This document shows positions 21,994 through 63,850 of a stretch of DNA of 64,000 nucleotides, piece by piece. A program made the translations under genes and the position numbers. This DNA is from an uncultured Poribacteria bacterium (lineage in GTDB: Bacteria; Poribacteria; WGA-4E; WGA-3G). The first letter of the stretch is position 1, and each line of letters opens with the position of its first letter. The stretch is from positions 2,146,217 to 2,210,216 of the forward strand of contig OX639992.1 in assembly GCA_951828515.1 (NCBI GenBank), in the 5' to 3' direction. The notes beneath the pieces were generated by a model, which saw only the letters and a program-made list of their open reading frames with translations, was not told where the DNA came from and made no database searches.

Positions 21994-22160
21994 TTTTTAA
22001 TTATTCCTTTTTTAATTTTCCTTGCGGAGAAACAGCGGACGTTCCAACTTTGACATGCGTTCCTCAAATCCGCTCTCCAAATGTAAAGCAAAGACAAATT
22101 ATGCCATTTAAGGAGAACCTAATTTCATTACGAGCTACGGGTTTTGAGGCTATCGTAACC
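21994..22160 (-). promoter_or_regulatory. Leader repeat family copy abutting the start codon
   Basis: TTTTAATTTTCCTTGCGGAG ... ATCCGCTCTCCAAATGTAAAGCAAAGACAAATTATGCCATTTAAGG ... ATTTCATTACGAGCTACGGG. Confidence 0.6.
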
Positions 22161-27705: not shown

Positions 27706-27870
27706 TTTTTTAATTTTCCTTGCGGATTTTTAATTTTACCTTGCGGAGAAACAACGTACGTTTCGACTTTTAGGTGCGCTTCTTATATCCGCCCTCCAAA
27801 TGTAGAGCAAAGACAAATTATGCCATTTAAGGCATAATTTCATTACGGGCTATGGTTTCGGTCTTTCGGG
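27706..27870 (-). promoter_or_regulatory. Leader repeat family copy with a duplicated TTTTAATTTTCCTTGCGG head
   Basis: Direct reading. Contains the palindrome TTATGCCATTTAAGGCATAA. Confidence 0.6.
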
Positions 27871-28168: not shown

Positions 28169-28290
28169 TGCCTCTAAACAAACCGACTTGACCAGAGCGT
28201 GTAGTCCGATGTGTAAGATCGGACGGGGTTACGTAGAGAAAATCCAATTCAAACTAAACCTAACCGAACGCACGGCGAATAATTAAAAAA

Positions 28291-28956
28291 TCATTTTTCG
28301 AGAAGCACCTTGATATCCCGCCGTAGACGCAAGAGTGCCGGTTTGCTTCGACTATCGTAATAGCCATAGATGTTTCCATCCGGCTCAACGAGAACAAACC
28401 GCGTGCTATGAAGGAGCTCCGTGCCGTTGTGCCCCGCAGCTAAACTGAATCCGTCCTCGGCTAACTGGTAGATAGCTGTCTTGTCCCCAGTAAGAAAGTG
28501 CCAACGTCTATCATCAGCCCCATAAGCCTTTGCGTAGCGCGAGAGGACGCTTGACGTATCCCGCTCCGGATCCACGGAGTAAGAGACAAAATAGACCGGA
28601 TCCGCAACAAATTCGGATTGAAGGCGTGCCATCTCCTGCGTCATTGCCGGACAAATCGTTGGACAATTGGTGAAGATGAAGTCAGCAACCCAAATTTTGC
28701 CCTTCATGTCGGACAGTGTTAACGGCTCTCCGTGCTGTGTTGTCAGGCTAAAGTCCGGGACGCTGACAGCGGCACTTTTAGACACCGGTACTTCCGATTT
28801 AGTGCCAAATACCGACCACAAATTGATACCGGCAATGCCGATGATGATAACACCCAGCACTACCCAGATTAGGGTACTTTTGTCAAGTTTTCGTTCTCGA
28901 AGTCGGGAATCGGAGTTCCCTCCTACACTCTCGGTTTGTGTGTCCATATTGAGCAC
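28291..28956 (-). CDS. SCO1/SenC copper chaperone for cytochrome oxidase assembly
   Basis: Thioredoxin-like CxxxC (FTNCPTICP), N-terminal TM anchor, family-typical length. Confidence 0.8.
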   Translation of the reverse strand: MLNMDTQTESVGGNSDSRLRERKLDKSTLIWVVLGVIIIGIAGINLWSVFGTKSEVPVSKSAAVSVPDFSLTTQHGEPLTLSDMKGKIWVADFIFTNCPTICPAMTQEMARLQSEFVADPVYFVSYSVDPERDTSSVLSRYAKAYGADDRRWHFLTGDKTAIYQLAEDGFSLAAGHNGTELLHSTRFVLVEPDGNIYGYYDSRSKPALLRLRRDIKVLLEK

Positions 28957-30025: not shown

Positions 30026-30115
30026 ACCCTTTCAGTTATCAGTTAAGAGGTTTTCGTTTAACAAAAGCCTCTTTTAACCGACTACCGATGACCGATAACC
30101 GATAACCATTCCAAT
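30026..30115. repeat. Hairpin repeat element (CAGTTATCAG ... AAGAGGTTTTCGTTTAACAAAAGCCTCTT ... CCGATAACCGATAACC). It lies in the same orientation as the copy at 31598-31690.
   Basis: Direct reading. Encodes the C-terminus of ORF 30039-30320. Confidence 0.7.
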
Positions 30116-30346: not shown

Positions 30347-31372
30347 TTAGCTCGGGGAGGAATGCCCGCTCCTATAATTAAAGTTTAGTTTTGTTAGAAC
30401 TTTGAAGTCCATTCGTTTGGCACTTGTTGTGAGTCGTTTTCCATCTAAACTGTAGAGAGCAAACAATCCTTTGGCGTTGATCCCTGCTAATCTTGTGAAT
30501 CCGTATTTGATATGCTTAACAAGTGTGTTCTTTATCAACCCCTCACAGAGCACAGTGCCGCCATATTTTGAACGAACACCCCCCTTTTTGTATTGTTCTC
30601 TATGCAGACTACGTCTCGCTATAGGTATCGGTGATATACAGAATAGGTCTGTATTCTCCAAAATAGGCCCGCCAATTGTATAATAAGCAAGACACCAAGA
30701 ATCTACACAATGCGCCTCAAAAGCGTCAGAGAGTTTCTTTGACGACTTCCTGAGACCGAGGCGATCCCGTATCTCTTTCGTCTCCCACCCTTGAAGCGTT
30801 AGGAGTTCCCACCGCTTTTTGACTTCATCATAGAACCATTGCTTACCGACTTCCAAAGGACTAAATGACGTATTCCATTTCTTGGCACTCTTGAGAGTTC
30901 TTGCTTTGATGTCCTCAACGCATACATGCGTCACAGGGAACAGTTTTGACAGCCACTCAAGGATGCGAAGTTTCCAGTCCCAACGTGCGCGTGTGCCAGC
31001 AGGAATACGCGCTTTATTCAAAAGTCGGTTTGTTCGGTTCTTGCGATTCGGACACTTCCGTGAACGTCTACCTCTACGCAACTCACACCGCTTTTCAACT
31101 TTCTTTCCAACTTTACTATGGGCATCGGCTTGCACATTTAAGTAGGTATGTGCTTTGGATTTGACAGTAAAGCCTTCCTTTTTGCTGCCCGGATCAACAC
31201 CGACAGCGATTTCTTGTGTTTCCCGTGCTACAGGCTCTTTGTTGAGGCGGATACAATAGATACCATTATCAAAATAGGGAGTTGCCTGACCGCGCTTTAC
31301 AAGTTTCCTTGCCCGCGCAGCGTGCATAGGCATCAGTTGTTGTCCGTCTTTGGTCTTAACAGGCACAAACAT
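30347..31372 (-). CDS. isrB: IscB-family RNA-guided nuclease lacking an HNH domain (IsrB-like, OMEGA system)
   Basis: N-terminal PLMP/RRXRR domain (KDGQQLMPMHAARARKLVKRGQA...IYCIRL). RuvC-I IAVGVDPGSKKEGFTV. Arg-rich bridge helix RRGRRSRKCPNRKNRTNR. RuvC-II VCVEDIKA. RuvC-III EAHCVDSWCLAYY. No CxxC..H..N..H HNH motif. The 341-aa length matches IsrB. Confidence 0.6.
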   Translation of the reverse strand: MFVPVKTKDGQQLMPMHAARARKLVKRGQATPYFDNGIYCIRLNKEPVARETQEIAVGVDPGSKKEGFTVKSKAHTYLNVQADAHSKVGKKVEKRCELRRGRRSRKCPNRKNRTNRLLNKARIPAGTRARWDWKLRILEWLSKLFPVTHVCVEDIKARTLKSAKKWNTSFSPLEVGKQWFYDEVKKRWELLTLQGWETKEIRDRLGLRKSSKKLSDAFEAHCVDSWCLAYYTIGGPILENTDLFCISPIPIARRSLHREQYKKGGVRSKYGGTVLCEGLIKNTLVKHIKYGFTRLAGINAKGLFALYSLDGKRLTTSAKRMDFKVLTKLNFNYRSGHSSPS

Positions 31373-31690
31373 AAGTTTGTATTCTCCTTTTCAGGGTATA
31401 TGTTTCCCCATCCAGATCATAGTATCCAAGAAGAATCAGACTTGGGGAGCATCCGAAACGTTGTTCTAACTGCCACGTCAAGATACTACGATATATTACT
31501 GTAGTCAACCGTTTAACTTGTGGAGTGGACGTTTGGCGGACGCTTCGCACAGGTCCCCCGAATTTATTCGGGGGTTATTGACTTAACACTTCCTTTTTAT
31601 AGGTGTCAGTGGTCAGTTTTCAGTTAAAGAGGACTCTGGTTCAACGGATCTGCCTTTTAACCGACTCCTGATAACCGATAACCAACAACC
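31373..31690 (-). ncRNA. Candidate omegaRNA region of the IsrB element
   Basis: A 318-bp non-coding stretch immediately 5' of isrB on the same strand. Contains a strong hairpin CCCCCGAATTTATTCGGGGG (31554-31573) and a repeat-element hairpin at the distal end. Placement is by analogy to known IsrB loci. Confidence 0.35.
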
Positions 31691-31691
31691 A

Positions 31692-32270
31692 TTAAAAGAG
31701 ATACACCAACACATAGAGAATTGGCCAGAGGGCGACAACAAAAATCCAGTAGATAGTACAAGTATCAATGCCGACGTAACCTTCGGCTGAGAAACGACCC
31801 GCCATCGCCATCCCAAAAACTATAAATAGCCAGATAACAGCACTCAGCACGTGAACGGCATGGCATCCGATGAGTACATAAAAGATACCACCATAGACAC
31901 CAGATTGGAGGGTAAGCCCATTGCGAATCAACTGTATCCATTCGCTTCCCTGTACGCCGAGGAAGAGTAAGCCAAGTCCTCCTGTAAGCAACAACCAATT
32001 GCGGAGTTGCTTCAGTTGGTCCTTCTGAATTGCGCGGCGTGCTTGAAACATCGTGTAGCCGCTCAATAGGAGAAGCACAGTGTTGATGCCGGTTACCGCG
32101 CGTGGCAGTTCAATCCCGATATGCGATGGTGGGGGCCAGGTGACATTTCCCACTCGAAAGACGAGAAATGTACCGATGAGCCCTGAAAACAGCATCGTCT
32201 CTGCACCCAGCAGGACTAATATTCCCAATCGTGCGTTGCTCAAGGGTGAACGTTGGTGCATTTCTGCCAT
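31692..32270 (-). CDS. Second cytochrome c oxidase subunit III-like protein
   Basis: Five TM helices and subunit III-like His pattern (HAVHVLS). Confidence 0.65.
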   Translation of the reverse strand: MAEMHQRSPLSNARLGILVLLGAETMLFSGLIGTFLVFRVGNVTWPPPSHIGIELPRAVTGINTVLLLLSGYTMFQARRAIQKDQLKQLRNWLLLTGGLGLLFLGVQGSEWIQLIRNGLTLQSGVYGGIFYVLIGCHAVHVLSAVIWLFIVFGMAMAGRFSAEGYVGIDTCTIYWIFVVALWPILYVLVYLF

Positions 32271-33456: not shown

Positions 33457-33556
33457 TTTTTAATTATACCTTGCGGAGGAATGACGTAGATTGAAATTTT
33501 GACCCACCATTCTCACGAGTCGCCCTCCACTTCGTTACGGGCTACGGTTACGAAAA
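33457..33556 (-). promoter_or_regulatory. Leader repeat family copy abutting the ctaB start
   Basis: TTTTTTAATTATACCTTGCGGAGG ... GTCGCCCTCCACTTCGTTACGGGCTACGG. Confidence 0.6.
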
Positions 33557-33650: not shown

Positions 33651-34775
33651 TTATTCTGTGGCGAGCGCATCCGTCGCGGGTGCTCTGACAACTACCGATG
33701 CATCAGTGAACCGGTAGATTTTCAGGGTAAGCACAAAACTGCTCACCAACATAAGCGCACCGACTGCGACATGCGCAGTCGTGATTGTGACCGTGAGTGC
33801 GGTTGCAAATGTTTCTCCGAAGGCGGTAAGTTTCGCGAAAAACGCCCCAGTGCCGAGCATCAACTGAATAGCAAGCAAACCCAGCAATAACATAGGTATC
33901 GATTGCCCAATTCTCTGGGCGTCACTATTCATACTAAGAACACGTCTCGCCAATAAAAAGATATGCAACGCGACCAGAAAAGCAAAGAGCAGATGTGCGT
34001 CAAGTCTGCTTCCGGTATGCCGCAAAATCGCGCCAAAGATGAGTTGCACATAAATAAGGCACGTCGTAATCAGGCTTAACCGGCGTAACTTCTGTGCTTT
34101 AAGATGGCTTTCGGCTCTCGGCTCTCGGCTTTCAGCAAGAGGGTTTTTGTTAAACGAAAACCTCTTTACCGACTGCTGATTGCTGATTGCTGATTGCCTG
34201 TCTGGTTCGCTTTTTGGCGCAGCTTGCAAGCCAAAACTTGCTGTACGAAAGTCCTGCCACCAATCGCGAGAGGTGAACCAAGCAATTCCACAAAGCAGGG
34301 CAAAAAACGCTTGTGCGAGACATGCATGTACGATCGCGAAGTTGAGATTAATCTGTGTAACCCGAAGTCCACCGAGAACGCCTTGCACAATGACAGCGAC
34401 CAAGGCAACAAATCCAAGCCATTTTAACCATTTGCGTGAATCTCTCACCAAAAGGAAAACCAAGAGACCGACTGTCAAAAGTCCAACAAGGGAGCCCATG
34501 AGCCGATGACTATGTTCGTATAGGATGCCTCCTACCATTTCCGAGAGTGGATAGAGAAACATATTATACCCAAAGGTCGTCGGCCAATCAGGCACTGCTA
34601 ATCCCGATTCTGTACTTGTGACAATCCCACCGATGACAATCAACAAGAAAGTCGCGACTGCGGTAGCGCGTGCTATTCTATGTAGCCATAGGCTATAATT
34701 GGGTGGAAGATTGGAAGATTGGAAGATTGGGTATCCACCCTTCCTCTCTTCCCTCCTTCCAGTCTTCTCTTCCAT
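33651..34775 (-). CDS. ctaA: Heme A synthase (CtaA/COX15, type 2 lacking the loop cysteines) with a repeat-encoded ~60-aa insertion in the central loop
   Basis: Eight TM helices, HRLMG and HIFLLARR His motifs, VPDWP loop. The central loop (ISNQQSVKRFSFNKNPLAESREPRAES) is encoded by the hairpin repeat element at 34090-34200. Confidence 0.65.
   Translation of the reverse strand: MEEKTGRREERKGGYPIFQSSNLPPNYSLWLHRIARATAVATFLLIVIGGIVTSTESGLAVPDWPTTFGYNMFLYPLSEMVGGILYEHSHRLMGSLVGLLTVGLLVFLLVRDSRKWLKWLGFVALVAVIVQGVLGGLRVTQINLNFAIVHACLAQAFFALLCGIAWFTSRDWWQDFRTASFGLQAAPKSEPDRQSAISNQQSVKRFSFNKNPLAESREPRAESHLKAQKLRRLSLITTCLIYVQLIFGAILRHTGSRLDAHLLFAFLVALHIFLLARRVLSMNSDAQRIGQSIPMLLLGLLAIQLMLGTGAFFAKLTAFGETFATALTVTITTAHVAVGALMLVSSFVLTLKIYRFTDASVVVRAPATDALATE
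34090..34200. repeat. Hairpin repeat element (GCTTTCGGCTCTCGGCTCTCGGC ... GGTTTTTGTTAAACGAAAACCTCTTT ... CTGATTGCTGATTGCTGATTGC) embedded in-frame in ctaA
   Basis: Same family as 30026-30115, 31598-31690 and 38150-38245. Confidence 0.65.
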
Positions 34776-38146: not shown

Positions 38147-38149
38147 TAG

Positions 38150-38245
38150 CAGTCAGCAGTCAGCAGTCAGCAATCAGTAAAGAGGTGTTCGGAGTTGAAG
38201 ATACCTCTTTCAAGTGATGGCTGATAGCCGATAGTCATTCCTCTA
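38150..38245. repeat. Hairpin repeat element (CAGTCAGCAGTCAGCAGTCAGCAATCAG ... GGCTGATAGCCGATAG)
   Basis: Direct reading; intergenic. Confidence 0.65.
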
Positions 38246-39181
38246 TACGAATGGATTACCCGTCAATTTTATAAACACATCCTCCAGTGTCGGTTTCCCA
38301 AATCGAACCGATTGAATCTCATCTGGAAAGGTGGCAACTAAATCCCGGACGAACTCATGTCCCCGTTCACATTCAACACGGATCAGATTGTCAGCCAGCA
38401 CCGGTGAAACGCCAAACCTCTTCGTAATTTCGGTGCAGAAGACTTCGTTGTCTATGCACTCTATGAGGATGACATCGCCACTGACTTCCGCCTTGAGTTC
38501 ATTAGGCTCTCCAAGGGCGACCAATTTGCCTGCGTCCAGAATACCGACTCTATTGCACGCCTCGGCATCATCCAGTAGGTGCGTCGTGAGGAAGACGAGG
38601 ATATTTTCTGTATCCGCGAGTGCGCCAAGATAGTCATTGAGTTGTCGGCGTGCCGCCACATCCAACCCACTTGTCGGTTCGTCAAGGAGTAGAAGACGGG
38701 GAGAATGCAGCATGGCTTTCGCGATTTCAACCCGTCTTTGTAAACCACCGGATAAGAGTTCCACACGTTCCTTCGCCCTATCCAAGACGCCAAAACGTTC
38801 GAGGAGTTCCGAAATTCGATCGCGTAGGGTTTTGCCAGCAAGTCCATAGAGGTGTCCATGGTGCCGCAAATTCTCAAAAACGGTAAGTTTGCCATCCAGC
38901 CCTGGGTGTTGGAAAACAACTCCCAAGAGCTTCCGAACTGCCTTCACCTCGGTGGTTAAGTCGTGTCCGAGGACACGAACGGTACCGGACGTGACCGGCA
39001 TCAGCGTGGACAGGATTCTAAAAAGAGTCGTTTTTCCACTCCCGTTCGGTCCGAGGAGCCCAAAAACCTCACCGCATGAGACGCTAAAACTGACATTGTC
39101 AAGTGCGCGCCGTGTTTGATATACATGCGAAAGATTTTTTACCTCAATTTGGTCGTCGGTGTATTGGAAACCATCAGCCAT
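38243..39181 (-). CDS. ABC transporter ATP-binding protein with C-terminal extension
   Basis: GPNGSGKTT, LSGGLQRR and LLLDEPTSGLD motifs. Start trimmed to MADGFQ because the upstream sequence is a repeat element. Confidence 0.75.
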   Translation of the reverse strand: MADGFQYTDDQIEVKNLSHVYQTRRALDNVSFSVSCGEVFGLLGPNGSGKTTLFRILSTLMPVTSGTVRVLGHDLTTEVKAVRKLLGVVFQHPGLDGKLTVFENLRHHGHLYGLAGKTLRDRISELLERFGVLDRAKERVELLSGGLQRRVEIAKAMLHSPRLLLLDEPTSGLDVAARRQLNDYLGALADTENILVFLTTHLLDDAEACNRVGILDAGKLVALGEPNELKAEVSGDVILIECIDNEVFCTEITKRFGVSPVLADNLIRVECERGHEFVRDLVATFPDEIQSVRFGKPTLEDVFIKLTGNPFV

Positions 39182-39227
39182 CGGCTTTCGGCTATCAGCA
39201 AAGAAATCCTGTTGCATTCAAAGATCG

Positions 39228-39290
39228 CGAGTACAACTCGCTCCTAATAAACATCGCGAGTACAACTCGCTCCTACAGCGGAGGTTTACG
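39228..39290. repeat. Direct duplication of ATCGCGAGTACAACTCGCTCCTA (hairpin GCGAGT-ACA-ACTCGC); a related copy lies at 54345-54380
   Basis: Direct reading. Confidence 0.75.
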
Positions 39291-40169: not shown

Positions 40170-40395
40170 CCTTTTTAATAGTTATCAGTTATCGGTTTTA
40201 ACCATCAACTCGTGCTTTAACATTTATAACAGAGGCGAGTTGATGGTTAAAGTTTTCAGTTAAAGCACTTTTTGATTCATCTACTGAACGTTGATAGCTG
40301 AAGGTTCATTATTAATTATCAGTTATTGGTTATCAGTTTTCAGTTAAAATCCCTTTTGATGCGTCTCAGGTATCTCTTGAACTGAAGACCAACAA
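40170..40395. repeat. Large hairpin-rich repeat element between gene 40401-42110 (stop) and the cupredoxin gene (start)
   Basis: GTTATCAGTTATCGGTTTTAACCATCAACTCG..CGAGTTGATGGTTAAAG and CAGTTATTGGTTATCAGTTTTCAGTTAAAATCCCTTTTGA. Confidence 0.6.
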
Positions 40396-42112: not shown

Positions 42113-42889
42113 TTAGTGTGCCTCCCCAAAGGTTCGGAACTGATAACCGGTGTAGTCAGATAGGAAGAGGATTACGTCCCAAATTTCGTCTTCTGTCAAG
42201 TGGTTTTCCCAGATAGGCATCGCTGAATCCCAAGGTGTGCCAGCTGCAGGTAACCCCGGTCCGCCTTTGGCTATTCGCCAAAAAAAGAAACCTTCTTGGA
42301 AGTTCGGGATAATCCCTGGATCTTGGAAATTAGCGGGTAGCGGTTGGAGGTGAGACGCAAAGTGTCCCTGCCCATCAAGGTGATCCCCATGGCAGTAAAA
42401 GCAGTTGTTATAATAAACACGCCTGCCGTTCTCAACATGCGCTTTGAACGCATCTGGATCGTCCTTTTCATAATGCCGGAAAGGGTTCACGACATCTTGC
42501 ATCGTGCCAATAACCTCATCTTTGTAGGTTAATTCAAGCGGAGGCGATGGATGAGCATCACGTGGACTCCCCGGTGGATTCGCGCGCTGGGCGATAATCG
42601 AATAGGTATAACCGAGCAGGAACAACGGGATTAACACCGCGACAACACGGCGGCGGACACGGCGATTGTTATCGGTGAGGGTTTCATGAATAGGGCGCAG
42701 AAATTCGCGAAATAGTGAATCCTCAACGGAGATATGCACCAAGATAGCAATTATAATCAACCCCATATACATCGCAATCACGCTGCCTGGTATCGGTACT
42801 GAGACGATACCGCCAACGGCAAACCGTAGTACAGCCCAAGAACCAATCAGAATTATGAGACATATTGTGAAGAGTGACAGTCTTTTCAT
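42113..42889 (-). CDS. Membrane-anchored mono-heme cytochrome c
   Basis: Three N-terminal TM helices. CFYCHGDHL. Confidence 0.65.
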   Translation of the reverse strand: MKRLSLFTICLIILIGSWAVLRFAVGGIVSVPIPGSVIAMYMGLIIIAILVHISVEDSLFREFLRPIHETLTDNNRRVRRRVVAVLIPLFLLGYTYSIIAQRANPPGSPRDAHPSPPLELTYKDEVIGTMQDVVNPFRHYEKDDPDAFKAHVENGRRVYYNNCFYCHGDHLDGQGHFASHLQPLPANFQDPGIIPNFQEGFFFWRIAKGGPGLPAAGTPWDSAMPIWENHLTEDEIWDVILFLSDYTGYQFRTFGEAH

Positions 42890-42890
42890 C

Positions 42891-43334
42891 TTTTAATATT
42901 ACCTTGCGGTTCGGTTAGGCAGGTTTCATGAATAAAGTGCCTTTACGTATATCCGTCCTCCATTACATTACGGACTATGGCTTAGAGGGTTATCGGTTGT
43001 CAGGCACCGGTTTTTTATTCCGCCGGAATTGCCTCCGCTTTTAATATTACCTTGCGGTTCGGTTAGGCAGGTTTCATGAATAAAGTGCCTTTACGTATAT
43101 CCGTCCTCCATTACATTACGGACTATGGTTTAGAGGGTTATCGGTTGTCAGGCACCGGTTTTTTATTCCGCCGGAATTGCCTCCGCTTTTAATATTACCT
43201 TGCGGTTCGGTTAGGCAGGTTTCATGAATAAAGTGCCTTTACGTATATCCGTCCTCCATTACATTACGGACTATGGTTTAGAGGGTTATCGGTTGTCAGG
43301 CACCGGTTTTTTATTCCGCCGGAATTGCCTCCGC
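42891..43334. repeat. Three tandem copies of a 148-bp unit, each containing the leader-family head TTTTAATATTACCTTGCGG and core ATATCCGTCCTCCATTACATTACGGACTATGG
   Basis: Unit starts at 42891, 43039 and 43187. The last copy overlaps the 3' end of the upstream cytochrome gene. Confidence 0.85.
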
Positions 43335-44822
43335 TGCCCCTTCAGAAACTGCTTCCGCTGTTGCCCCCGTAAGCGTGCTTAAGAAAGAGAGCAAATTGCT
43401 CATATCCGACACTGATAACAGTAGCGGGAAGTTTTCGGGCATCGGCGATGTAACGAATAATTTTTTGCCAGAGGCACGGGTAAAGGTGGCTTCCTCAAGA
43501 TCAAAAAAGGGATCAAATACCTCTTCACTCCCATCAACCATTAAGACAATCTCGTCGTCCATCGTGCCTGAAACGTAGTCGCCAACAATTTCATCGCCAT
43601 CAAAAGTGAGAACAGTCATCTGGCTTTTTACATCTGTCTTAGAAAATGTCCGATCTTCGCCGCCGACTTTTAGCGTTACAGTGTCTTCGGTTTCGGAAAC
43701 AATTTCACCGCTCACCGGAGCATCCGCATCCGCAGGCGTTAGCGTCAATGTGAAATAACCCCTCACTTGTAGATTCGTGAGATCCTCAATCGGCTCGTCA
43801 TCAAGTTCGCTCAATAAGAGGGTATGCTCCTCTTCCACGCCATCTGCCGTTTTGGTTCGGACGACAATCTGTTCTGTATCCTGCGAGACAAGCGTTCCCT
43901 GCAAGGTCGTTCCATTGGCACGGACGGTAACGGCACCATAACCGCTTACAATCTGCGCACTCGGTTTCAGGACCGATTCCTCAAGATACCGCATATCGTT
44001 AAAAGCAGCAATTTCAGAGAGGTCTGGTGCAGTGACGACTTCAAAATCTGTACTCGCCTCACCCGTAGCTGGACTTTCTATACCTATCACAGCGTGGCAC
44101 GAGATACACGCCGCAGTCACAAACACCTTTTTGCCGAGTTCTGGATCACCCGTAAGCACGGGTGGGAGTGCCGCTGCCATTGTCCCTGCATCTGCCCGAT
44201 CTATCGGTTCATTAAAGGGTGTCGGATCGATTTCCCCCCCTTGGCTCTGCAGATAGGCAATAACGGCTTCAATTTCCAGTTTTGAGAGAGCAATGGGAGC
44301 CTTCCAAATTTCTGGCATAATCTTGCCGTATCCGGGCACAAGATACTTAGCCGGCTCGTAGAGCGATTCGATGAGATAGGTTTTCGCGTCCGTGCCGGGT
44401 ACGCGACTTGCGGCGTTAATGCCAATGTCCGTGAGATCAGGACATCTCCCTTTCGGTGCAGAGGTATCGACGGTATGGCACGCGCTACACTGCCCTTTTC
44501 CGTTAAACACCAAGGCTCCCTGCTCAGCGACAGCGTCTGGATCGCTCCAATCCAGCTCAGTCAGATTCACCGCTGTGGAACTTTCTGGGACAAGCCCCGC
44601 GACAAAGGCGTAAAACCATATCACGGCAAGCGAAAACGTCAACAACTTCATGACGTTCGACCACAAAACGATATTTACGATTACCGAGATGAGAAACCAG
44701 ACCGACCACGGTAGCAAGTTCTCCGAAGCAATCGGAAACGCGGACGCCCCTGCAATATAGGCGATGAAACTTACCACCATTAAGATGAGACTCGCAATTT
44801 TAATGAGCGTATTTCTTGACAT
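43311..44822 (-). CDS. Membrane-anchored di-heme cytochrome c
   Basis: Three N-terminal TM helices. CSACH and CISCH. Confidence 0.65.
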   Translation of the reverse strand: MSRNTLIKIASLILMVVSFIAYIAGASAFPIASENLLPWSVWFLISVIVNIVLWSNVMKLLTFSLAVIWFYAFVAGLVPESSTAVNLTELDWSDPDAVAEQGALVFNGKGQCSACHTVDTSAPKGRCPDLTDIGINAASRVPGTDAKTYLIESLYEPAKYLVPGYGKIMPEIWKAPIALSKLEIEAVIAYLQSQGGEIDPTPFNEPIDRADAGTMAAALPPVLTGDPELGKKVFVTAACISCHAVIGIESPATGEASTDFEVVTAPDLSEIAAFNDMRYLEESVLKPSAQIVSGYGAVTVRANGTTLQGTLVSQDTEQIVVRTKTADGVEEEHTLLLSELDDEPIEDLTNLQVRGYFTLTLTPADADAPVSGEIVSETEDTVTLKVGGEDRTFSKTDVKSQMTVLTFDGDEIVGDYVSGTMDDEIVLMVDGSEEVFDPFFDLEEATFTRASGKKLFVTSPMPENFPLLLSVSDMSNLLSFLSTLTGATAEAVSEGAAEAIPAE

Positions 44823-45171
44823 ATTTTTAACTATTAAGTTTTCGCTCCGCTCTCCATTTCATTCCGAGCGGGTTTTGATTAAATAAATTGGGGTTAAGTG
44901 CCAATTTTGGTTCAGACGCGGCTGTATCCTTAACCGGGGTTACCAACCTTTTCCGTCAGCAATTCTTCCCGCAAAAGTTCCTAACGCCGTCGCCCACGGT
45001 GTTACCAGGCTTCCTGCAGTGACTGCCCCAGCAATACACCCAAGGCATGCGCCACTTAACGCGACCCGATTCCTTGTCCGTTTATAGCGAACCACATAAA
45101 AGTCAATATATTCAGGCGATTTGCCCAAAAACCGTGTCGGTCGTGGCGAAAGTTCCGTTCTTAGCCTTCTA

Positions 45172-47937: not shown

Positions 47938-48294
47938 TTACGGACGAAACATCTCCTTAATATAGGCGAGTATCTCCCGTTGTTCCTCATCACTGAGGTA
48001 ATAGTAGAACGCCGGCATATCGTCCTTTCCAGCATTGATGCTATCCAGCAATTGTTCATCACTGTGCATATCCCAGAGACCGCTGTCTGTCAGGTCTGCG
48101 GGATCCAACCTTTTGAAACGTCCGATGCGTCCGTTGCCCTCTCCGTTGTTGCCATGGCATCCAGCGCAATACCGAGCGTACTTGTATTCAACCTCCGACT
48201 GATACTTCGTACTCGGGTCAACCTGCTTAGCCAACCAGATTAAGCCGTTGAGCCATACCATAATCATGACGATAATGACCACAAGGTGTCTCAT
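47938..48294 (-). CDS. Small mono-heme cytochrome c (c6/c553-like), membrane-anchored
   Basis: N-terminal TM helix. CAGCHG. Met-rich distal region. Confidence 0.7.
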   Translation of the reverse strand: MRHLVVIIVMIMVWLNGLIWLAKQVDPSTKYQSEVEYKYARYCAGCHGNNGEGNGRIGRFKRLDPADLTDSGLWDMHSDEQLLDSINAGKDDMPAFYYYLSDEEQREILAYIKEMFRP

Positions 48295-48470
48295 TTTTTA
48301 ATTATTCCTTGCGGAGTAATAAAGGGCGTTTGAAGTGTCGGATGCGTTCCATCTATCTGAAGAAAGGGAAACGCCCTATCAAAAACCCCAAGCAAAAACA
48401 CGCAGGCGGATATGAGAAATACACGCAAAAATCTTAACACACGCAATTTCTCCGCAAGGTAAAATTAAAA
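48295..48470. mobile_element. MITE-like unit with a ~20-bp terminal inverted repeat (TTAATTATTCCTTGCGGAG ... CTCCGCAAGGTAAAATTAA) derived from the leader repeat family
   Basis: Direct reading. Lies between the start of gene 47938-48294 and the stop of gene 48471-51581. Confidence 0.55.
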
Positions 48471-51400
48471 TTAGCGTCCCAAGGAGATGAGGTAATCTCG
48501 GACGAGTCGAATCTGTTTTTCAGCATCATTGTCAACATAACCATCGAGTGGCATGTGTTGTCCACCAACGAGGGGCCATGCTTGCGGCATCGCTGTTCCG
48601 GGTTGGAACGACTGCGGATCTTTCATCCAATCAATGAGCCAATCCGCCTTGAGTCGCTCTTTCGCCAACGCAAGATCGGGGCGTCCTGCCTTGTCACTTC
48701 CTTCAGGAATAGTCTCACCTTTTGCGGGATGGCAGGAAATACACTGAAGTACGTCAAAAATCTGCTTCCCGACTCGTAACTCAGCACTCGTCGGTGTTGG
48801 CGTTTCAAGCGTTTCATAAGGGAATGGTTCATTATCAAGCGCGGAGAAGTATTTAACCAGCGTTGTCGCCTCGTCATCAGATAATCCGAATGTCGGCATC
48901 CGTACTTTGAGTCCGTATCGGATGTCTGAGGGTTCTTTGAGGAATGTAAATAACCAATCTGGATACACTCTTGCGCCTTCCGCTTTCAAGGGTGGCGGTG
49001 CCACTTGCTTGGCAACCATCTCGCTCAACCCTTCATGTGCGATGATAACATCCTGATAATCACCGCCCGCGCCTTCAATCTCGTGGCATCCGGTGCAGTT
49101 ATATTTCTTGACCAATCGCCTACCCGCATCAATGTCGTTCAATTTCTCGGATCGGTTATGGATATAACTCAGCGGATACTGCTCCGGTTGAAAACTCTTC
49201 AAAAGCACGGCGATCGCTCTCGCGTCTTCATCGCTAATCTGGAAGACTGGCATCCGAGAAACAATCCGGCGGGTTTGATAACGTCGTGGATTGGTAACTT
49301 TACCGAGCGTCCACCCCGTCCAACTGTGTTCAATGCCCACCGTGTCGCCGAAGTCAAGTTCATCAGCGAATTTCGCGCCGAATTCGCCGAGATCCGCACC
49401 GACTTTTGACTCATTCTCAAAACCGGGAATCGTGTGACAACCGAAACATCCATAAGTCCTGACGAGTGCTTCACCTTCCGCTACATCTACTTCGCCGATG
49501 GATTCGGTAACTGCGTTGGTCGTTGCTTGCTGTAAACTCATCAGATAGGCGACGACGTTGTCAAGTTCGCCGGCACTTAACCGCAAACTCGGCATACTCG
49601 TATCCGGGTCATACGCTTTTGGATCGCTAATCCACTGGTGGAGGTAACTCGCCGTAACCTTTGTGCCAACACTGTCAAGTGCCGGGGCAAAATCACTCCC
49701 TAACCCATCGACGGCATGACATGTGAGGCAACCAACAGTTTTGACGGTTTCCTCGCCTGCTTTAATAGCACTTTCGGATGTGGAATACTTGGAATTGGAT
49801 GCATCCAATTCCGCATCATTCATCGCAGCAAGGTAAGCCGAGATAGATTTCACCTCATCAACAATGCGGAGGACATAGCTATCAGGGTAAGGATACTCTG
49901 TGCCATCGTCTGTTTTAATGACAATACCATTGGCTGTTTTGGTAACAACCCCGGTGCGCATCCCACCGTTTTTAAGGTAGACGATCTGCGTCATACCGTC
50001 GGCTGGGAAGAAATTCGGCATTTTCGCATTTGATAGATAAGCTTCAGGGTTCTTAATCCAACTTTCAAGCCATGCTGTATCTTTCACCTTACTGCCGACT
50101 TTTGCCAAGGATGGACCAACTTTGGCGATGTTATCGAGGGCACTATACCCTTCAACAGCGTGACATCCGTGGCATCCAAGGTCTTCAAAGAGTGCCAATC
50201 CCTTCGTCAAATTCGGTGCATAGTCTTGTGGTTCATCCGTTTCAGGATTCACACCGTAATCTAACATCATCACGCCATCGTGACAGCGGCGGCAGTTAGA
50301 CTCCATATACCCTTCTGTTTCTTCAGATGTTCTGCCGGTATGTTCATCTAATCCGAGGACAGGGGTGAGCCAGTATTCAGCGTGCGTCAAGGCGTGGGCG
50401 GATTTCGCTGTGAGTGCTTGACCTTGCCCACCATGGCACGGGGTACACCCGAACCTATCAACCGGATGCTTGTCGAGAAGCACATCGCGGTGGGGATGCG
50501 TCTGAAGGACAGGACGATAGCCGGTCTCATAAGAGATTTCAATTTCACCGAAGACATCCACGTCACTGAAGGTAAGCGTGCCATTTTCCTCTAATGTATA
50601 TTCATCCGCTTCTGCGTCAAATCCATCTATTATAACACTCTCACTACCGACCTTAACGCTTGCGTGCTTGAGACGATGTATAACAGGATTTTCGCCATCA
50701 CCTTCCACCTCAAACATCTCTTGTCCGGACTGTTCGTAACCCTCTTTATCAGCGGAGAAGTGACAGGTAGCACACCGATCTGCGGTATGATTAAAGTCTT
50801 CAAGATAGTATTGAACGATGGTTCGTGTTTCACGGAAAGGATTTTCTAACAGACTCCCCAAGAAGGTTCGCTTAATACCGCCGACCGAATGCAGTTTTTC
50901 TTCAAGGCGCGTAACTTCTTCGTGTTGTGCTTTGTCGGCTTGCAATGATTGAAAGGATGCTTGTGCGGCGGCGATACCCGCAGTAATTTCCGTATCCGTA
51001 GGATTATATTTCTGGGCGATGAGATAGGTGCTGAGGGCACTCTGTGCGTCCCCATTGGTTTGATAAAATTGCGCCAAAGCCTTGTTCGCATTTGCAAAGG
51101 TTGCTTCTGCGTTCAAAACGGCTTCGGTGAGTTCGCCTTCAATTTGGGACTCATAATCCGCTAATTTTTCCTGCCATCTATCAACGGTAGCATTGTGTTT
51201 ACCCTTCGCTTCATGGAGACTATGCTGATATTTATAGTTAATGGCATCGGATTCGCTCTGTCGGAATTTGCGTTCTTGCAGTGCTTCTTCTACGGCGACC
51301 TGAGCGTCCCTGACTTCCTTCGTTAACCGACCAAGTTCCTTTGCGTCAGGTTCTTGAGGTGTGGGGAGTTCAGGCAAAGCCAATTGTGCATTCTCTAATT

Positions 51401-60423: not shown

Positions 60424-62973
60424 CTACAGATTGCCTCCGGAAGTTTTCGCGAAGTGAACGCTGGCGTGTACTAACTGATCCGGTCGTACTCCCGTAAATG
60501 TCAGTTTATAAATCGGTTTGTCCCAATTATATTGATAATCGCTTCCATAGGTCGCCGCATTCATCGGTAGGTAATCATCCGGTACATGAATAAAGCAGGT
60601 TCCCTCAGCCTGCCTAAGTGGATTACAAACGAGCATGTAACTTTGGCTGTGTGTATCCCAACCAGCAGATAAAATCTCAACGCCGCCCTGCGTATAGTGC
60701 ATATCCGTGGCGAGCAATTGCGGTACGTTCTGTTCTTCACGGAAGCAAAGCAGTTTGGCAGAACGGGGTGGAATGTTCAACAAAGTTACACTGTTTGAAA
60801 CCTTTCCAAGATATTGGCGCATCCAGAAGTCGTGAACGAGAAATTCTTTAGATTTCGGTAACCCAAGTGTCTCCAGTTCAAAATAGGCATCATTCTCGTA
60901 GTCGTCCCAGTTGAAAACTGCGGCGAGATACCAAGCTTCACGAGGTGTTGATACCGGTAGACACCATATTTTTGGAAAAGGTTCATCGTAAAGGTCTATA
61001 GGTGTAGCCGCCTTACCTATGAGTGGAAAAATTTTTGCCAAGTAACCCGCACGCGACGAAGTCAGTGTCGTAAATTGGTCTGCGCACAAAACTGTCCCAC
61101 CACTCAATGCCGCCGCTGTCATTTCCACAATTGCCTCGTTGACAGGACGTGGTTCATTCACAGCAATCTCACCAAAGACGTGTCCCCAGAGAACGTTATG
61201 CTCCCTGAGATGTGCGGCATACCTGCTGAGACGATGCTTTGTGCCACGCTGATGATGCCACGAGTCATTTGCCCGATTGGAAGCCGCGCCCACAGCAGAA
61301 AGAGAAGGACTGAGGAGTGGCGTATTAATATCAATACTACCAAGGCATGGACCGGGTACAGCATTGTATCCGGCGAGTAGAATATCATCCTTCAGAGGCA
61401 CGTTTTCCGCCCGCGCCTCATCGACCGCCTCCCTGAGCAATTTTCCAGCGAGACGATAAAGTTCGACTGAGGTCAGACTGCTATCACGCCAACGCAAGTT
61501 GTGTGAAGCATTCGTGAGTCCCATCGTATAAGCTGTAAAGTCGGCGTTGATGAATGAATATCCACATTCACCAACGACCTGTTTAATCTGTTCACGAATA
61601 CGGGACTGCACCTCTGGATGCGAAACATCTAAGAGGGCGACCTCTTTACCACTCTCTGGCAAATGAACTGTGGCAGGTTTGGAACCGTTACGCGCAGAAT
61701 GCTTACGGGAGTATCTTCTTCCACCACGGGACGCAGTTTTCTCTTGTATACAATAGTTTGGATGGCTTTGGACAAGTGCCGAATCCAGGGCGGCACAGAA
61801 CGGATTGAACCGGATACCCGCTTTGAAACCTTTCGCTCGGATGTGACTGGTAATCGCTTGCATTTCCTCACGATTTTGCGATACCGAAGCCTCTGAACCC
61901 TGCGTAAAAACCCCCAATTCTGATTCCAAGATTGCATTCAATTGAATATAATCAATACCGCCTGGACAGTTCGGCTGAAACATCGGATTCTCGGCGAGCG
62001 CGTCTGTTTCGGTCAAGATAGCATTTGCATCAAGTGATCCCTCTGTATCGGCAAGCGTCCACACAGTAGTGGGCATGCTGTGTTCAAGGGTGGGCTGAGC
62101 CTCAGTAAGATCGCTTTCGTGTGCGATATTCCGCGCTGCTATAACCGAAGTATAATGTTCATAAGCTGCAGACACCCTATCTGTAAAATTGATGTAAGCA
62201 GTTTCGGAGGTGATTTCTTTACCGGAGTCGCACTGCTGCGTACACTCATGATAAAGGGACCACGGATTCACACCTGACGCGGACGACTTTTTACCATGCG
62301 ATTGCGAGCCGCGCCCACCATTTTTATGACAGCCGACTTGAATTCGGGGCCACCATTTCTCAGTCGTCAGGAAACCGAAGACAAGTGCTTTCCCGCCTTT
62401 TGTATCGCAAATTACACCATCATTGCCCGGATGCATAGCGTCGGTCTCACTCAGTAGAAACCCTTCATAGAGTTTTTTACTGACGCCAGGGGAAACAGGC
62501 GGCATGTTAATAAAGAGATGATAATCCGATGGAAGTCCGCCAAGTGACACAGCACCACGGTTGCCTGAAACCCCAAGCACCGTTACACTATCGAGTCGTA
62601 GTGGCTCCGATTTCAGGTTTTCAATACCAACCTTGAGGTGTATCGCGGGGTGTGCCGCATAGCACTTGAGATAGGTATTTATCCGCACCCCCTTCCCTGT
62701 CGCCTCATGAGAGAAGCGAATTTGGTGATAACTGCCGAAAGCATCGGTCTTCGGAAGTTCAGTGTTAAATTCGCGAGTGCCAGCGTCTTCAGTTTTGATG
62801 GTACTTCCATTGTTAAGGGTTATTTGTGTGGACCCCTCTCGGATAATTGTGTGACCACTCTCATCGACATAATCCCATGTTCCTTTTGAAAGGTTAAACT
62901 TAATCTCAAAATTAGCGTGGTTTATCACAGCGAGGTTGCCCTGCCGTGAAACTGTTATCACATTTGATCTCAT
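60424..62973 (-). CDS. Large glycoside hydrolase-like protein (GH36-like alpha-galactosidase fold, tentative)
   Basis: KGFKAGIRFNPF...HPNY and GYSFINADF resemble the GH36 catalytic region. Start reassigned to MRSNVITV, which abuts a leader-family head (TTTTCTAATTTTCCTTGCAG). Confidence 0.4.
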   Translation of the reverse strand: MRSNVITVSRQGNLAVINHANFEIKFNLSKGTWDYVDESGHTIIREGSTQITLNNGSTIKTEDAGTREFNTELPKTDAFGSYHQIRFSHEATGKGVRINTYLKCYAAHPAIHLKVGIENLKSEPLRLDSVTVLGVSGNRGAVSLGGLPSDYHLFINMPPVSPGVSKKLYEGFLLSETDAMHPGNDGVICDTKGGKALVFGFLTTEKWWPRIQVGCHKNGGRGSQSHGKKSSASGVNPWSLYHECTQQCDSGKEITSETAYINFTDRVSAAYEHYTSVIAARNIAHESDLTEAQPTLEHSMPTTVWTLADTEGSLDANAILTETDALAENPMFQPNCPGGIDYIQLNAILESELGVFTQGSEASVSQNREEMQAITSHIRAKGFKAGIRFNPFCAALDSALVQSHPNYCIQEKTASRGGRRYSRKHSARNGSKPATVHLPESGKEVALLDVSHPEVQSRIREQIKQVVGECGYSFINADFTAYTMGLTNASHNLRWRDSSLTSVELYRLAGKLLREAVDEARAENVPLKDDILLAGYNAVPGPCLGSIDINTPLLSPSLSAVGAASNRANDSWHHQRGTKHRLSRYAAHLREHNVLWGHVFGEIAVNEPRPVNEAIVEMTAAALSGGTVLCADQFTTLTSSRAGYLAKIFPLIGKAATPIDLYDEPFPKIWCLPVSTPREAWYLAAVFNWDDYENDAYFELETLGLPKSKEFLVHDFWMRQYLGKVSNSVTLLNIPPRSAKLLCFREEQNVPQLLATDMHYTQGGVEILSAGWDTHSQSYMLVCNPLRQAEGTCFIHVPDDYLPMNAATYGSDYQYNWDKPIYKLTFTGVRPDQLVHASVHFAKTSGGNL

Positions 62974-63004
62974 GTTTTCTAATTTTCCTTGCAGTTCGGT
63001 GAGG

Positions 63005-63736
63005 TTAATTGGCGGCAACTGCCCAACAAGATATGATCTCCGCGGGTTCATCCCCCGTTTGGGAAAGCGAAAAGGTGTCTCTGGGGTCGAGGAAAAGGAC
63101 ATCATGTCGTTTCAAAGCACACGTTTCTCCGGCATCAGTCGTCACTTCAGCACATCCATCCCTTAGCACATAAATTGACTCGCTGTCTATCGGTTCATGT
63201 GCAAAGTTTTCCCCTTTGTTGAGATAGATGTAATCTAAGGAGAGGTGTACAGAGCCTTTTTGTGGAGAGACCACACTTCGCCATTCGGTGGATTTTCCAA
63301 ACACAGGACCACTGCGCGCCATATTGATGACTTGGACGTTACTGCGATGTCCGTCTTGAGGTGTAGGCGCTGTATTCGGGGTATCCCGTTCGCCTCGGTA
63401 GAGTGCCATATCCGGCGGAGCCTGGAAGCTAATTAAACGCGCCATGTTCGGGGTCGTATTCACCGTTCCATGTACCTCGCCTGCCGGCACAAAGATAACA
63501 TCGCCCGCAGCAATCGGTGTATAGACCGCCCCTTGGCGGATAGCTCCACCACCTTCTAAAACGACAATCGCGTCTTCCGATGCATCGTGATAATGCTGTG
63601 TAAACTCTTGACCGGGGGCGTGAACCCCATGATTTAAGGTCAGCTGTTTGGAACCCATATCAGGATGCACGACACGCCAATTTTTACCTTTGCCCATTTG
63701 AAAGGGCGTTCCGGATTGGAGATTCAAAATTTCCAT
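63005..63736 (-). CDS. Bicupin (two cupin domains) protein
   Basis: Two G(X)5HXH-like cupin motifs (HYHDASEDAIVVLEGGG; HEPIDSESIYVLRDG). Confidence 0.6.
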   Translation of the reverse strand: MEILNLQSGTPFQMGKGKNWRVVHPDMGSKQLTLNHGVHAPGQEFTQHYHDASEDAIVVLEGGGAIRQGAVYTPIAAGDVIFVPAGEVHGTVNTTPNMARLISFQAPPDMALYRGERDTPNTAPTPQDGHRSNVQVINMARSGPVFGKSTEWRSVVSPQKGSVHLSLDYIYLNKGENFAHEPIDSESIYVLRDGCAEVTTDAGETCALKRHDVLFLDPRDTFSLSQTGDEPAEIISCWAVAAN

Positions 63737-63850
63737 GTTTTTAATTTTCCTTGCGGAGGAACAACGTGCGTTAGAATTATCGGATGCGTCCCTTAAATCC
63801 GCTCTCCATTACATTACGAGCTACGGGCTTTGAGGCTATTGTAGCATAAC
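63737..63850 (-). promoter_or_regulatory. Leader repeat family copy abutting the bicupin start
   Basis: TTTTTAATTTTCCTTGCGGAGG ... ATCCGCTCTCCATTACATTACGAGCTACGGGC. Confidence 0.6.

Follow-up and report, generated by a model that had tools for sequence, protein, structure and literature searches.

A conserved leader element abuts the start codons of unrelated genes in a 64-kb stretch of DNA (hereafter the window; 64,000 nt of contig OX639992.1) from an uncultured Poribacteria bacterium, and stands in three tandem units between two of its cytochrome c genes. The reading that we favour, at just short of an even chance, is that the 3′ end of this element (the tail) may be a portable translation-initiation region, carried by a Poribacteria-specific mosaic repeat that resembles the repetitive extragenic palindromes (REPs) and bacterial interspersed mosaic elements (BIMEs). 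The tail, ..CGTYRTTYCT-CCGCAAGG-WAWAATTAAAA-(0-2 nt)-ATG, would work at the RNA level, offering a short Shine-Dalgarno (SD) match (AAGG or AAGGA, the first 4–5 bases of the AAGGAG of this genome) 11–12 nt before the ATG, followed by an A/U-rich, unstructured stretch. It would be read within the 5′ untranslated regions or intercistronic regions of mRNAs begun further upstream, and an abutting sense copy would have replaced the gene's own SD. Genes of this genome otherwise have AAGGAG or GGAGG 5–9 nt from their starts; when aligned to AAGGAG the tail has a spacing of 9–10 nt, compared with 4–11 nt for ordinary genes, and both this spacing and the AAGG(A) complementarity would suit an SD-led initiation region. 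The 5′ part (the head) may be a hairpin that serves RNA stability or processing, a role also suggested for REPs, or one that is recognised by a transposase which spreads the element. Copies spread and turn over by gain, loss, orientation flips, nested insertions and the formation of tandem and inverted dimers, and sense copies would be retained because the host uses the tail.

The element is approximately 90–170 bases long and a mosaic of head and tail modules, with the consensus ..AAAACC-(G/A)TA-[G NNN]-GTAAYGNARTGGA-[N'N'N' C]-GGAT(T/A)TRAGGAAcGCACgTCAAAGTTCAAACGCACGTTGTTY-CTCCGCAAGG-WAWAATTAAAA-(0-2)-ATG. The invariant part of the 19-base tail is CCGCAAGG-WAWAATTAAAA, and the region just 5′ of this core falls into sub-families with ..AAACGCACGTTGTTYCT- or ..CACCTGACCGAA-. 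The head is a GTAG-tagged, REP-like hairpin with all four stem positions paired in 62 of 78 distinct heads, and at least 12 stem types were seen (including GCCC/GGGC, GTCC/GGAC, GCTC/GAGC, GCCT/AGGC, GCAC/GTGC and GTTC/GAAC). Its inner pair was either T-A (50 copies) or C-G (34 copies), with a single exception. In 150 model-aligned copies 92% of cells were paired, with 140 double-change cells compared with 40 in shuffles (none of 500 shuffles reached 140), and slid controls of the head stem were at most 50% paired. The loop GUAAYGNARUGGA is conserved, and a conserved U-G pair in the hairpin favours the sense strand. A second head type, GCCTGC-AACAACGGC-GCAGGC, is of equal length and has the same flanks. 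The tag in 85 type-1 heads included CGTA+G (32), TGTA+G (12) and CATA+G (10), and its last G pairs with a 3′ C, being G-C in 117 of 127 informative cells. The covarying head hairpin is a well-supported structured element without an Rfam family; Rfam 15 gave no matches at gathering thresholds and none on the element even at E-values up to 5. No description of the family was found in Rfam or in the literature searched, where motif strings gave unrelated papers, mostly for oligonucleotide sequences. A 'Poribacteria-1' RNA motif was considered but was not found in the literature searched, and no Rfam model matched.

Further modules add to this plan. In the long forms the head loop contains a further, inserted hairpin (AAATTATGCC/GGCATAATTT), and the head can be replaced or broken up by a GTTTTTGMTTGGGTGTTTC module in either orientation. 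Another dispersed module, GGTGTTTTTGMTWGRGTGTTTCC, was observed in either orientation (10937–10963, 21404–21430 (inverted), 3443–3469 and 48360–48400), either free-standing or replacing or interrupting the hairpin head. Upstream of the element are heptamer repeats followed by GTTAAGAGG-TTTTCGTCTAACA; heptamer microsatellites (TAACCGA, TGCTGAT, AGCAGTC, TTATCAG) are present in many spacers of the window (such as 30075–30107, 34174–34197, 38148–38177 and 40316–40346) and in three Poribacteria loci fetched for comparison (L034, L091, L100), and are often followed by the same GTTAAGAGG-TTTTCGTCTAACA, a conserved module upstream of full-length copies. The first-pass annotation of this DNA had noted an upstream module ATCCGCCCTCCA..CATTACGGGCTAYGG, which is indeed present and is the reverse complement of the hairpin head, and a AAGCAAAGAC... 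module in longer copies, which we found at 22009, 27728 and, on the plus strand, 14832. The palindrome TTATGCC-N6-GGCATAA, which it had also assigned to the longer copies and considered as a transcription factor binding site, does occur, but intact only once in the window (27818–27837), in one of three long copies, and as an optional insertion in a loop it makes a poor candidate for such a site. Pairing of head and tail via GCGGA/TCCGC was considered and rejected, as it is gone in the GGCGACTC sub-family without a compensating change.

Searching the window for CCGCAAGGWAAWWTTAAAA with up to 3 mismatches gave 13 matches compared with 0.13 expected, and none of 100 shuffles reached 13. A covariance model (A3, R1) built from 23 copies detected 12 strong copies, with the three units of the tandem array included, and three weak or partial copies (28198–28289 on the plus strand, which is degenerate, 62975–63037 and 44846–44869). 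The copies outside the array are as follows.

5089–5180, minus strand: full element; the epimerase probably starts about 50 nt downstream of it (~5039), behind a GGGGAG SD of its own; covariance model.
14705–14797, minus strand: antisense copy, the tail of which holds the TAA of the plus-strand GFO/IDH/MocA gene (13440–14711).
14826–14920, plus strand: long-form head; the tail is degenerate (..AGGGGGACATAAATTAAAAA) and adjoins the ATG of a short-chain dehydrogenase/reductase (SDR) gene (14921–15721).
21994–22150, minus strand: long-form element, its tail partly duplicated (AAGGAATAATTAAAAA), immediately before the ATG of the PCP_red gene (21463–21993).
27707–27865, minus strand: long-form element with the palindrome hairpin inside the head loop, abutting the ATG of a USP/PCP_red gene; covariance model and repeat search.
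28198–28289, plus strand: degenerate antisense copy with a GTAG-TCCGAT..ATCGGA head and tail CGCACGGCGAATAATTAAAAAA; covariance model E = 2.7e-5.
33457–33548, minus strand: full element between ctaA (COX15) and ctaB, the tail abutting the ctaB ATG; 86.3 bits, Pfam UbiA and gene context.
44823–44880, minus strand: truncated variant, hairpin GCTC-GGAATGAAATGGA-GAGC followed by ..TTAATAGTTAAAAAT-ATG of the 503-aa cytochrome gene, lacking CCGCAAGG.
48295–48382, minus strand: sense copy with the head replaced by a GTTTTTGMT..GTTTCC module, the tail abutting the ATG of a 118-aa cytochrome c gene.
48386–48471, plus strand: antisense copy, the tail ending 1 nt from the TAA of a 1036-aa multihaem cytochrome gene (convergently read).
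62975–63037, minus strand: weak copy, tail CTGCAAGGAAAATTAGAAA, then AC, then the ATG of the GH36-like gene (60424–62973).
63737–63827, minus strand: full element abutting the ATG of the bicupin gene (63005–63736); covariance model, 95.9 bits.

Nine genes had been listed in the first-pass annotation as having the leader at their ATG, and for seven of these the tail lies 0–2 nt from the ATG (PCP_red, USP, ctaB, the mono-haem cytochrome, the c6-like cytochrome, the GH36-like gene with a degenerate tail CTGCAAGG...TTAGAAA, and the bicupin). The other two do not hold: the epimerase probably starts downstream of its copy behind its own SD, and the 503-aa cytochrome gene (43311–44822) has the truncated variant. 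That list lacked the SDR gene at 14921, which has a degenerate copy. The copy at 27707–27865 has its tail duplicated in tandem with a 21-nt period (27728–27746 and 27707–27725), and the one at 28198–28289 ends at the TGA of the SCO1/SenC gene (28291–28956; Pfam). The copies at 48295–48382 and 48386–48471 together form a head-to-head, tails-out dimer which occupies the entire spacer, in agreement with the facing heads reported earlier (tails at 48296–48314 on the minus and 48452–48470 on the plus strand), and orthologues of the antisense tail are present in two other loci (L051 and L093). Likewise, the modules earlier seen in both orientations at 14709–14886 correspond to copies of each orientation at 14705–14920, which form a second tails-out dimer. 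The copy at 5089–5180 is approximately 93% identical in a syntenic species (L024; counted by eye, about 6 differences per 91 nt), compared with 82–84% for the flanking coding DNA.

The family is far from restricted to the window. An exact-pattern scan with CTCCGCAAGGWAWWWTWAAAA of one genome per species (185,579 species) gave at least 110 loci in at least 28 species, where about 9 random matches were calculated for the whole collection. Among the matches listed, all were titled Candidatus Poribacteria save a few metagenome-assembled genomes titled 'uncultured bacterium', and one locus of the latter (L028) is syntenic with the window; among these matches the family is Poribacteria-specific and phylum-wide. 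In Poribacteria DNA fetched around motif matches (the L-numbered loci, 755 kb for model counts), the model matched 192 copies, so that, not counting the copy which seeded each locus, there is about one per 8 kb. The density in the window is about one copy per 5 kb (12–14 in 64 kb), which by extrapolation suggests several hundred copies per genome. The copies are extragenic, with essentially all located between open reading frames (ORFs).

Position and orientation relative to genes are strongly biased. Counting tails with up to 2 mismatches gave 224, of which 109 were located 0–4 nt before the start codon of a long ORF, and 42 of 58 exact-pattern matches had one and the same offset from the start codon. 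In many tail-adjacent ORFs Pfam domains start at residues 1–10, and these are therefore real N-termini. The leader is oriented with its downstream genes, as seen in co-directional spacers, where 152 tails were sense and 29 antisense (84% sense, p = 2.5e-21). Beside minority-strand genes of a locus the numbers were 12 and 5, and thus orientation follows the gene rather than the global strand. About 16% of copies are antisense, and 33 of 38 antisense tails overlap or touch the stop codon of the upstream gene (in the window at 14705, 28198 and 48386). Neighbouring copies comprised 23 tandem pairs (79–148 nt apart), 13 tail-only duplications (20–22 nt), 4 tails-out pairs (inverted tails within 400 nt) and no tails-in pairs; the family thus tends towards tandem reiteration, at times with flanking DNA included, as reported for REP clusters (PMC3733652).

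The genes behind tails encode ATP synthase alpha, complex I subunits L and M, DXS, RadA, ArgC and the 2-oxoacid dehydrogenase E2, as well as CstA, ABC ATPases, transporters, SDRs, enolase-superfamily and sugar enzymes, cytochromes, ctaB and USP. Both nuoL and nuoM have one tail each in L014, and the 189-nt atpH-atpA spacer of L053 (3952–4142) has two. Behind the first of these two tails come an ATG and an 8-codon mini-ORF (MGLCILEA), and ATGG is included in both tail copies. The first-pass annotation had suggested that the cassette could co-regulate unrelated genes, but these housekeeping and accessory genes have no common functional theme, and the tail is therefore better seen as a general expression signal than as the mark of a regulon. 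The tails between atpH and atpA, before nuoL, nuoM and the E2 gene, and between ctaA and ctaB lie inside operons, where a ribosome-binding site (RBS) is required and a promoter is not.

Orthologous sites with and without the element differ in their SD. The E2 gene of L078 has a 20-nt spacer, TAA-ggaaaaataGGAGaaAAAATG, compared with a 135-nt element in L033 which ends in ..CCGCAAGGAAAATTTAAAAAATG and has no GGAG; a second pair from the same two loci has AGGAAGG-N3-ATG versus a tail, and AAAGGA-N6/7-ATG is found in L110 and L111 at the same site as a tail in L054. In L072 (1200–1410) and L079, with flanking proteins 93% identical, the same spacer contains the element in opposite orientations. 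The antisense tail of L079 gives the upstream gene its TAA, and the downstream gene retains GGAGGAAGG before its ATG, whereas the sense tail of L072 lies against the ATG without any further SD. Orthologues without a sense tail carry a canonical SD instead, and the earlier proposal that the shared sequence supplies the SD is supported in that the tail stands in for the genes' own SD. Upstream of the bicupin gene, hardly any change is seen over the final ~28 nt ahead of the ATG in the window, L028, L080, L104 and L116, with the head being short, long or swapped for a different REP, and more distant bicupin orthologues (79–53% identity) have no tail, with AAGGA or AGAGG located 6–9 nt from the start. 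These swaps and the invariant bicupin tail together mean that copies are gained, lost and re-oriented, with the sense tail, once in place, being the part that is kept.

Several observations weigh against the tail being a translation-initiation region. The SD match is short (4–5 nt), its spacing is at the long end of the normal range, and after GG the base T (AAGGT) is commoner than A. The invariance of CCGC and of the A and T of WAWAAT is unexplained by an SD function. Some conserved tails lie 10–100 nt upstream of genes with their own SD, such as the epimerase copy at 5090, which is kept in L024, and those of L004 and L040, where AGGAGA follows the tail, and a pure RBS would be redundant there. 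Furthermore, the WAWAAT hexamer is located exactly where a −10 box would be for a leaderless mRNA, and the start codon was ATG in 83 of 86 tail-adjacent genes (96.5%) compared with 127 of 159 SD-led genes (80%; p = 2e-4), a preference which fits leaderless initiation at least as well. Logan assemblies contained no RNA-derived contigs, the species of the window being present in DNA assemblies alone; one Logan contig, for a 94% orthologue, starts inside the head and is uninformative on transcription start.

These points lead to an alternative that we consider unlikely, in which the tail would be a −10-only promoter for leaderless mRNAs, with transcription starting at the A of the abutting ATG. 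WAWAAT would be the −10 box at −12 to −7, CCGCAAGG would be bound by a sigma factor region or an accessory factor instead of a −35 box, and copies further upstream would drive ordinary leadered mRNAs. Leaderless promoters of Actinobacteria and Deinococcus have TANNNT approximately 6–7 nt before the start codon, and here the modal hexamer ends exactly 6 nt before an almost exclusive ATG, with its A2 and T6 unvarying and a G at −14 in the copies read (partly imposed by the search pattern), and T preferred over A after GG, which gives TAAAAT or TATAAT. Tails away from start codons are still conserved, and the 5089–5180 copy is among the few with a σ70-like pair (TTCACG-16-TATAAT). However, the tail differs from leaderless promoters in the extra invariant CCGCAAGG, in the lack of a −35 box and in its occurrence inside operons such as atp and nuo, and conservation at orthologous sites begins only at about −29. 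Genes with neither a tail nor an SD show no TANNNT peak at −12 to −7, although start calls are noisy, and leaderless starts are thus not a general habit here. Finally, the antisense copies at stop codons would fire into the upstream gene, and would be hard to tolerate were the tail a strong promoter.

The wider claim of a promoter cassette was not upheld. A σ70-type −35/−10 pair (9-of-12 match, using the tail hexamer) was found in 16 of 220 copies, with 93% of copies lacking a −35-like hexamer, and no recurrent site was found elsewhere in the element, nor a TG of an extended −10 before the tail hexamer; in the window, σ70 sites were no more numerous than in shuffles. Promoters of the σ54 type (GG-N10-GC) and the extracytoplasmic function type (GGAAC-N16/17-CGT) were checked by eye against the consensus and discarded, as the spacings misfit (21 nt from GGAAC to CGT). 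No tRNA gene lies behind any of the 224 tails, and no tRNA or tmRNA genes were found in the ~0.9 Mb around tails (loci L004–L113 and the window), where about 7 tRNA genes would be expected at a rough ~45 per 5.5-Mb genome. In sum, nothing pointed to a canonical promoter, nor to binding of the palindrome by a transcription factor. What is supported of the cassette as first described is that it belongs to a dispersed, modular family which recombines or moves.

The head places the family close to REPs and BIMEs, with which it shares a terminal (G/A)TAG plus hairpin, complementary stem changes and G-T pairs, as well as high copy number, extragenic location, several sub-families per genome, and the occurrence of singletons, inverted dimers and tandem reiterations that carry flanking DNA (PMC3733652). 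REPs are presumed to be transcribed and to work as hairpins in RNA, and GTAG REPs are defined by an unpaired GTAG at one end of the palindrome (PMC3733652). The usual GTAG REP criteria are a 20–40-bp palindrome with a 5–13-bp stem and usually a 2–4-nt loop, whereas here a short stem (4 bp plus non-canonical pairs, or 6 bp) encloses a large, conserved loop (9–13 nt). Type-1 heads, with a 4-bp stem and a 13-nt structured loop, are further from these criteria than type 2 (GCCTGC/GCAGGC, 9-nt loop). The final G of the tag is paired, so the tag is not fully unpaired, and a further conserved region of ~60 nt, ending at start codons, is joined to the hairpin. For the most part, REPs are located downstream of genes, and they are common between convergent genes, whereas the element points at downstream starts in 84% of cases. 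A canonical GTAG REP, TGTAGGAGCGAGTTGTACTCGCGATG, was also observed in the window, as two tandem copies with a 29-nt period (39220–39275) upstream of an ABC ATPase gene (38243–39217), and similar REPs (e.g. GTAGGGGCTGGGTTTCCCAGCCCGCC) are present in other Poribacteria loci (L028, L037).

This kinship leads to a second alternative, a purely selfish mobile repeat of the REP/REPIN, MITE (miniature inverted-repeat transposable element) or PATE type, which we consider quite improbable. Tail and hairpin would then be recognised by a transposase without gain for the host, and adjacency to start and stop codons would reflect insertion in very short spacers or in an A/T-rich target such as TTAAAA; indeed, empty sites already hold (TT)AAAA-ATG, and the tail end touches an ORF boundary in either orientation. 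The extrapolated hundreds of copies per genome, the gains, losses and one orientation flip at orthologous sites, the nested insertions, the tandem and tails-out dimers without tails-in ones and the REP-like tagged head would all suit a selfish repeat, as would a passenger gene of the IS200/IS605 family (IsrB) in the window. However, the strong sense bias tracks gene orientation, the tail is invariant at a vertically inherited site despite a lost head, and canonical SDs are lacking precisely at ATGs with an abutting sense tail, while sites with an antisense copy or none have them. Neither a target-site duplication nor a consistent 5′ boundary could be defined, since the upstream side dissolves into further modules and the flanks are inconsistent. 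Searching 0.92 Mb of Poribacteria DNA, a low-power search covering less than 1% of the genomes concerned, with E. coli RayT by tblastn gave nothing below E = 0.7, and thus no homologue of the RAYT/Y1 transposases.

Correia elements of Neisseria and MITEs are intergenic repeats of ~100–160 bp, which are co-transcribed with and can alter expression of their neighbours, and of which the inverted ends can pair in RNA. The tails-out dimers at 48295–48471 and 14705–14920, with terminal inverted repeats of ~20 bp, are MITE-like, but such dimers are rare (4 among ~224 tails), and most copies are single and asymmetric, with a head and a tail and without inverted-repeat ends or target-site duplication. 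Membership of the MITEs, for which terminal inverted repeats and a target-site duplication are the criterion, was thus rejected. Putative mobile promoters are near-identical upstream regions before non-homologous genes, within and across related genomes (PMC3575422). The element resembles these in its near-identical leaders before unrelated genes, but differs in that no canonical promoter is conserved, copies are located inside operons and it is the last ~30 nt before the ATG that are conserved.

The closest functional parallel, by analogy, is that of mycobacterial interspersed repetitive units (MIRUs), which are short operon-spacer repeats that are apparently mobile and insert at start codons with little harm to expression (PMC12548453). 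The element is likewise found at start codons and often inside operons (the 109 of 224 tails; atpA, nuoL, nuoM, E2). A −4 overlap couples a small ORF of the MIRUs to the downstream gene, and the consensus type-1 element has a 22-codon ORF, from an ATG in the hairpin loop to a TAA in the tail, but this ORF is neither conserved nor overlapping. Its TAA lies 4–10 nt before the downstream ATG, and its own ATG is missing in 34 of 85 type-1 heads (C for T, compensated by a G) and throughout type 2. Since ~40% of type-1 heads and all type-2 heads lack the ATG, coupling via this ORF is not a general mechanism. The copy at 5090 has a 19-codon ORF from another ATG (in GGATGTATGG) behind GGAGG, a start which is not family-wide either. 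In place of a coupled ORF, the tail supplies an SD-like motif and an A/U-rich leader.

A third alternative, that the element is a cis-regulatory RNA of a regulon, in which the hairpin or a CC-GCAA-GG mini-hairpin (CAAGGA) would be bound by one protein (for example a CsrA-like one) or small RNA, appears very unlikely. CAAGGA does resemble the GGA-centred sites bound by CsrA, and the structure-preserving covariation and conserved loop would be expected of such an RNA. The downstream genes lack a functional theme, however, the head is dispensable at orthologous sites, and no Rfam family matched. RNAalifold detected no helix beyond small hairpins (the head and a 2-bp CC/GG clamp around GCAA), with folding z-scores of single copies near zero (−1.5 to +0.9). 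Regulation through RNA structure would be possible in the tails-out dimers, in which tails are predicted to pair just after the upstream stop codon. In the predicted fold of 48286–48480, the two tails form a helix that begins 1 nt past the upstream stop and ends 3 nt short of the AUG, which, judging from this one fold, may have the geometry of RNA-unfolding translational coupling (PMC12548453).

A broader version of the translation-initiation reading, tentative and to our mind clearly below an even chance, is that the family is a mobile mosaic repeat with a 3′ end that is a ready-made translation start signal or leaderless promoter, which has been domesticated genome-wide, with dimers adding translational coupling. 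Individual copies may have been recruited as promoters.

The tandem array was read on the minus strand, in gene sense, as nearly all genes of the window are on that strand. Its features are as follows.

42890–43335, minus strand: tandem array of 3.0 units of 148 bp (Tandem Repeats Finder: period 148, 99% matches, score 885).
43311–43334, minus strand: true last 8 codons and TAA (GCGGAGGCAATTCCGGCGGAATAA) of the 503-aa cytochrome c gene (ORF 43311–44822).
42955–42975, minus strand: head hairpin of the gene-proximal unit, GTCC-GTAATGTAATGGA-GGAC, based on sequence and on compensatory stem changes across copies.
42891–42909, minus strand: tail CCGCAAGGTAATATTAAAA, then G, then the ATG of the 258-aa mono-haem cytochrome gene (42113–42889).

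The 148-bp triplication at 42891–43334 given in the first-pass annotation was thus recovered, but the unit is not the element by itself, as it had been described, since it also includes a 36-nt spacer and 24 nt of the upstream cytochrome gene. Each unit consists of GCGGAGGCAATTCCGGCGGAATAA (24 nt), the spacer, CCATA, the GTCC-GTAATGTAATGGA-GGAC hairpin, GGAT, a middle part of ~45 nt and AACCGCAAGGTAATATTAAAAG. The 24-nt 3′ end of the 503-aa cytochrome gene is re-copied inside the array as pseudo-3′ ends (43163–43186 and 43015–43038), and the identical tails at 43039–43057 and 43187–43205 are followed by GCGGAGG... and no ATG, which adjoins the last unit only (258-aa mono-haem cytochrome gene; Pfam). 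As the unit comprises element, spacer and coding DNA, and the junctions have AG as the sole common letters, the array is a segmental tandem duplication of the whole intergenic region plus 24 nt of coding sequence, and not a self-contained element triplicated; it may have arisen by local amplification of one copy and its flanks via unequal recombination or slippage.

Two contigs of one metagenome, 6.35 Mb and 219 kb long, encode the 258-aa protein, as does a contig of a second sample. The array has 2 units in the 6.35-Mb contig, which shares 99.8% identity with the window, and 3 in the 219-kb contig of the same sample, and thus copy number does vary between strains, as the first-pass annotation had proposed to examine. 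The contig from the other sample, 93–96% identical, has 2 units diverged from each other (92%). The diverged units in this relative, together with the 2 versus 3 units between strains, indicate that the first duplication is old and that copy number is still changing, and the 148-bp array is an ordinary, strain-variable amplification. MIRUs also form tandem arrays with a copy number that varies between strains, which is used in MIRU typing by variable-number tandem repeats, like the array here.

Other repeats and genes were observed in the window. Between the epimerase gene and the gene at 2782–3792 is a 38-bp tandem repeat (3833–4048, 5.7 copies, 97% identity) with the consensus ACGGCAGAACGGAGTCTGCCTACTACTTTATTTCGTGG and a GGCAGA..TCTGCC hairpin. 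An IsrB-type OMEGA nuclease gene (30347–31582, minus strand, 341 aa; Pfam RRXRR E = 1.8e-29, IsrB structure 8DMB E = 2.7e-32), in which no HNH domain was found, lies within the cox cluster just after COX3. A HEARO-like omega-RNA is predicted directly upstream (31379–31582; 23 bits, E = 0.0071, with only a 421-nt stretch searched), and the unit is bracketed by 40-nt direct repeats which are 88% identical (30071–30110 and 31654–31693). The window also contains three tandem beta-lactamase-fold paralogues (8367–12309, 67–79% DNA identity), a 737-aa protein (127–2340) consisting of two periplasmic-binding-protein halves, and a Big_1 adhesin-like gene (15946–18297) with internal repeats of ~300 nt.

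The 148-bp array could be used as a variable-number tandem repeat for strain typing of this uncultivated sponge symbiont. If the tail is a portable translation-initiation region, its 19–21 nt would be a very specific marker of Poribacteria in metagenomes and a compact leader testable in synthetic biology. Annotation of gene starts and operons in Poribacteria would change, as longest-ORF calling wrongly ran the epimerase ORF through the element. The native SD region would have been overwritten in about 10–15% of the genes in the window. To our knowledge, only promoters have so far been shown to spread as repeats through a genome, and the element would mean that translation-initiation regions can also spread in this way and become fixed even inside core operons.

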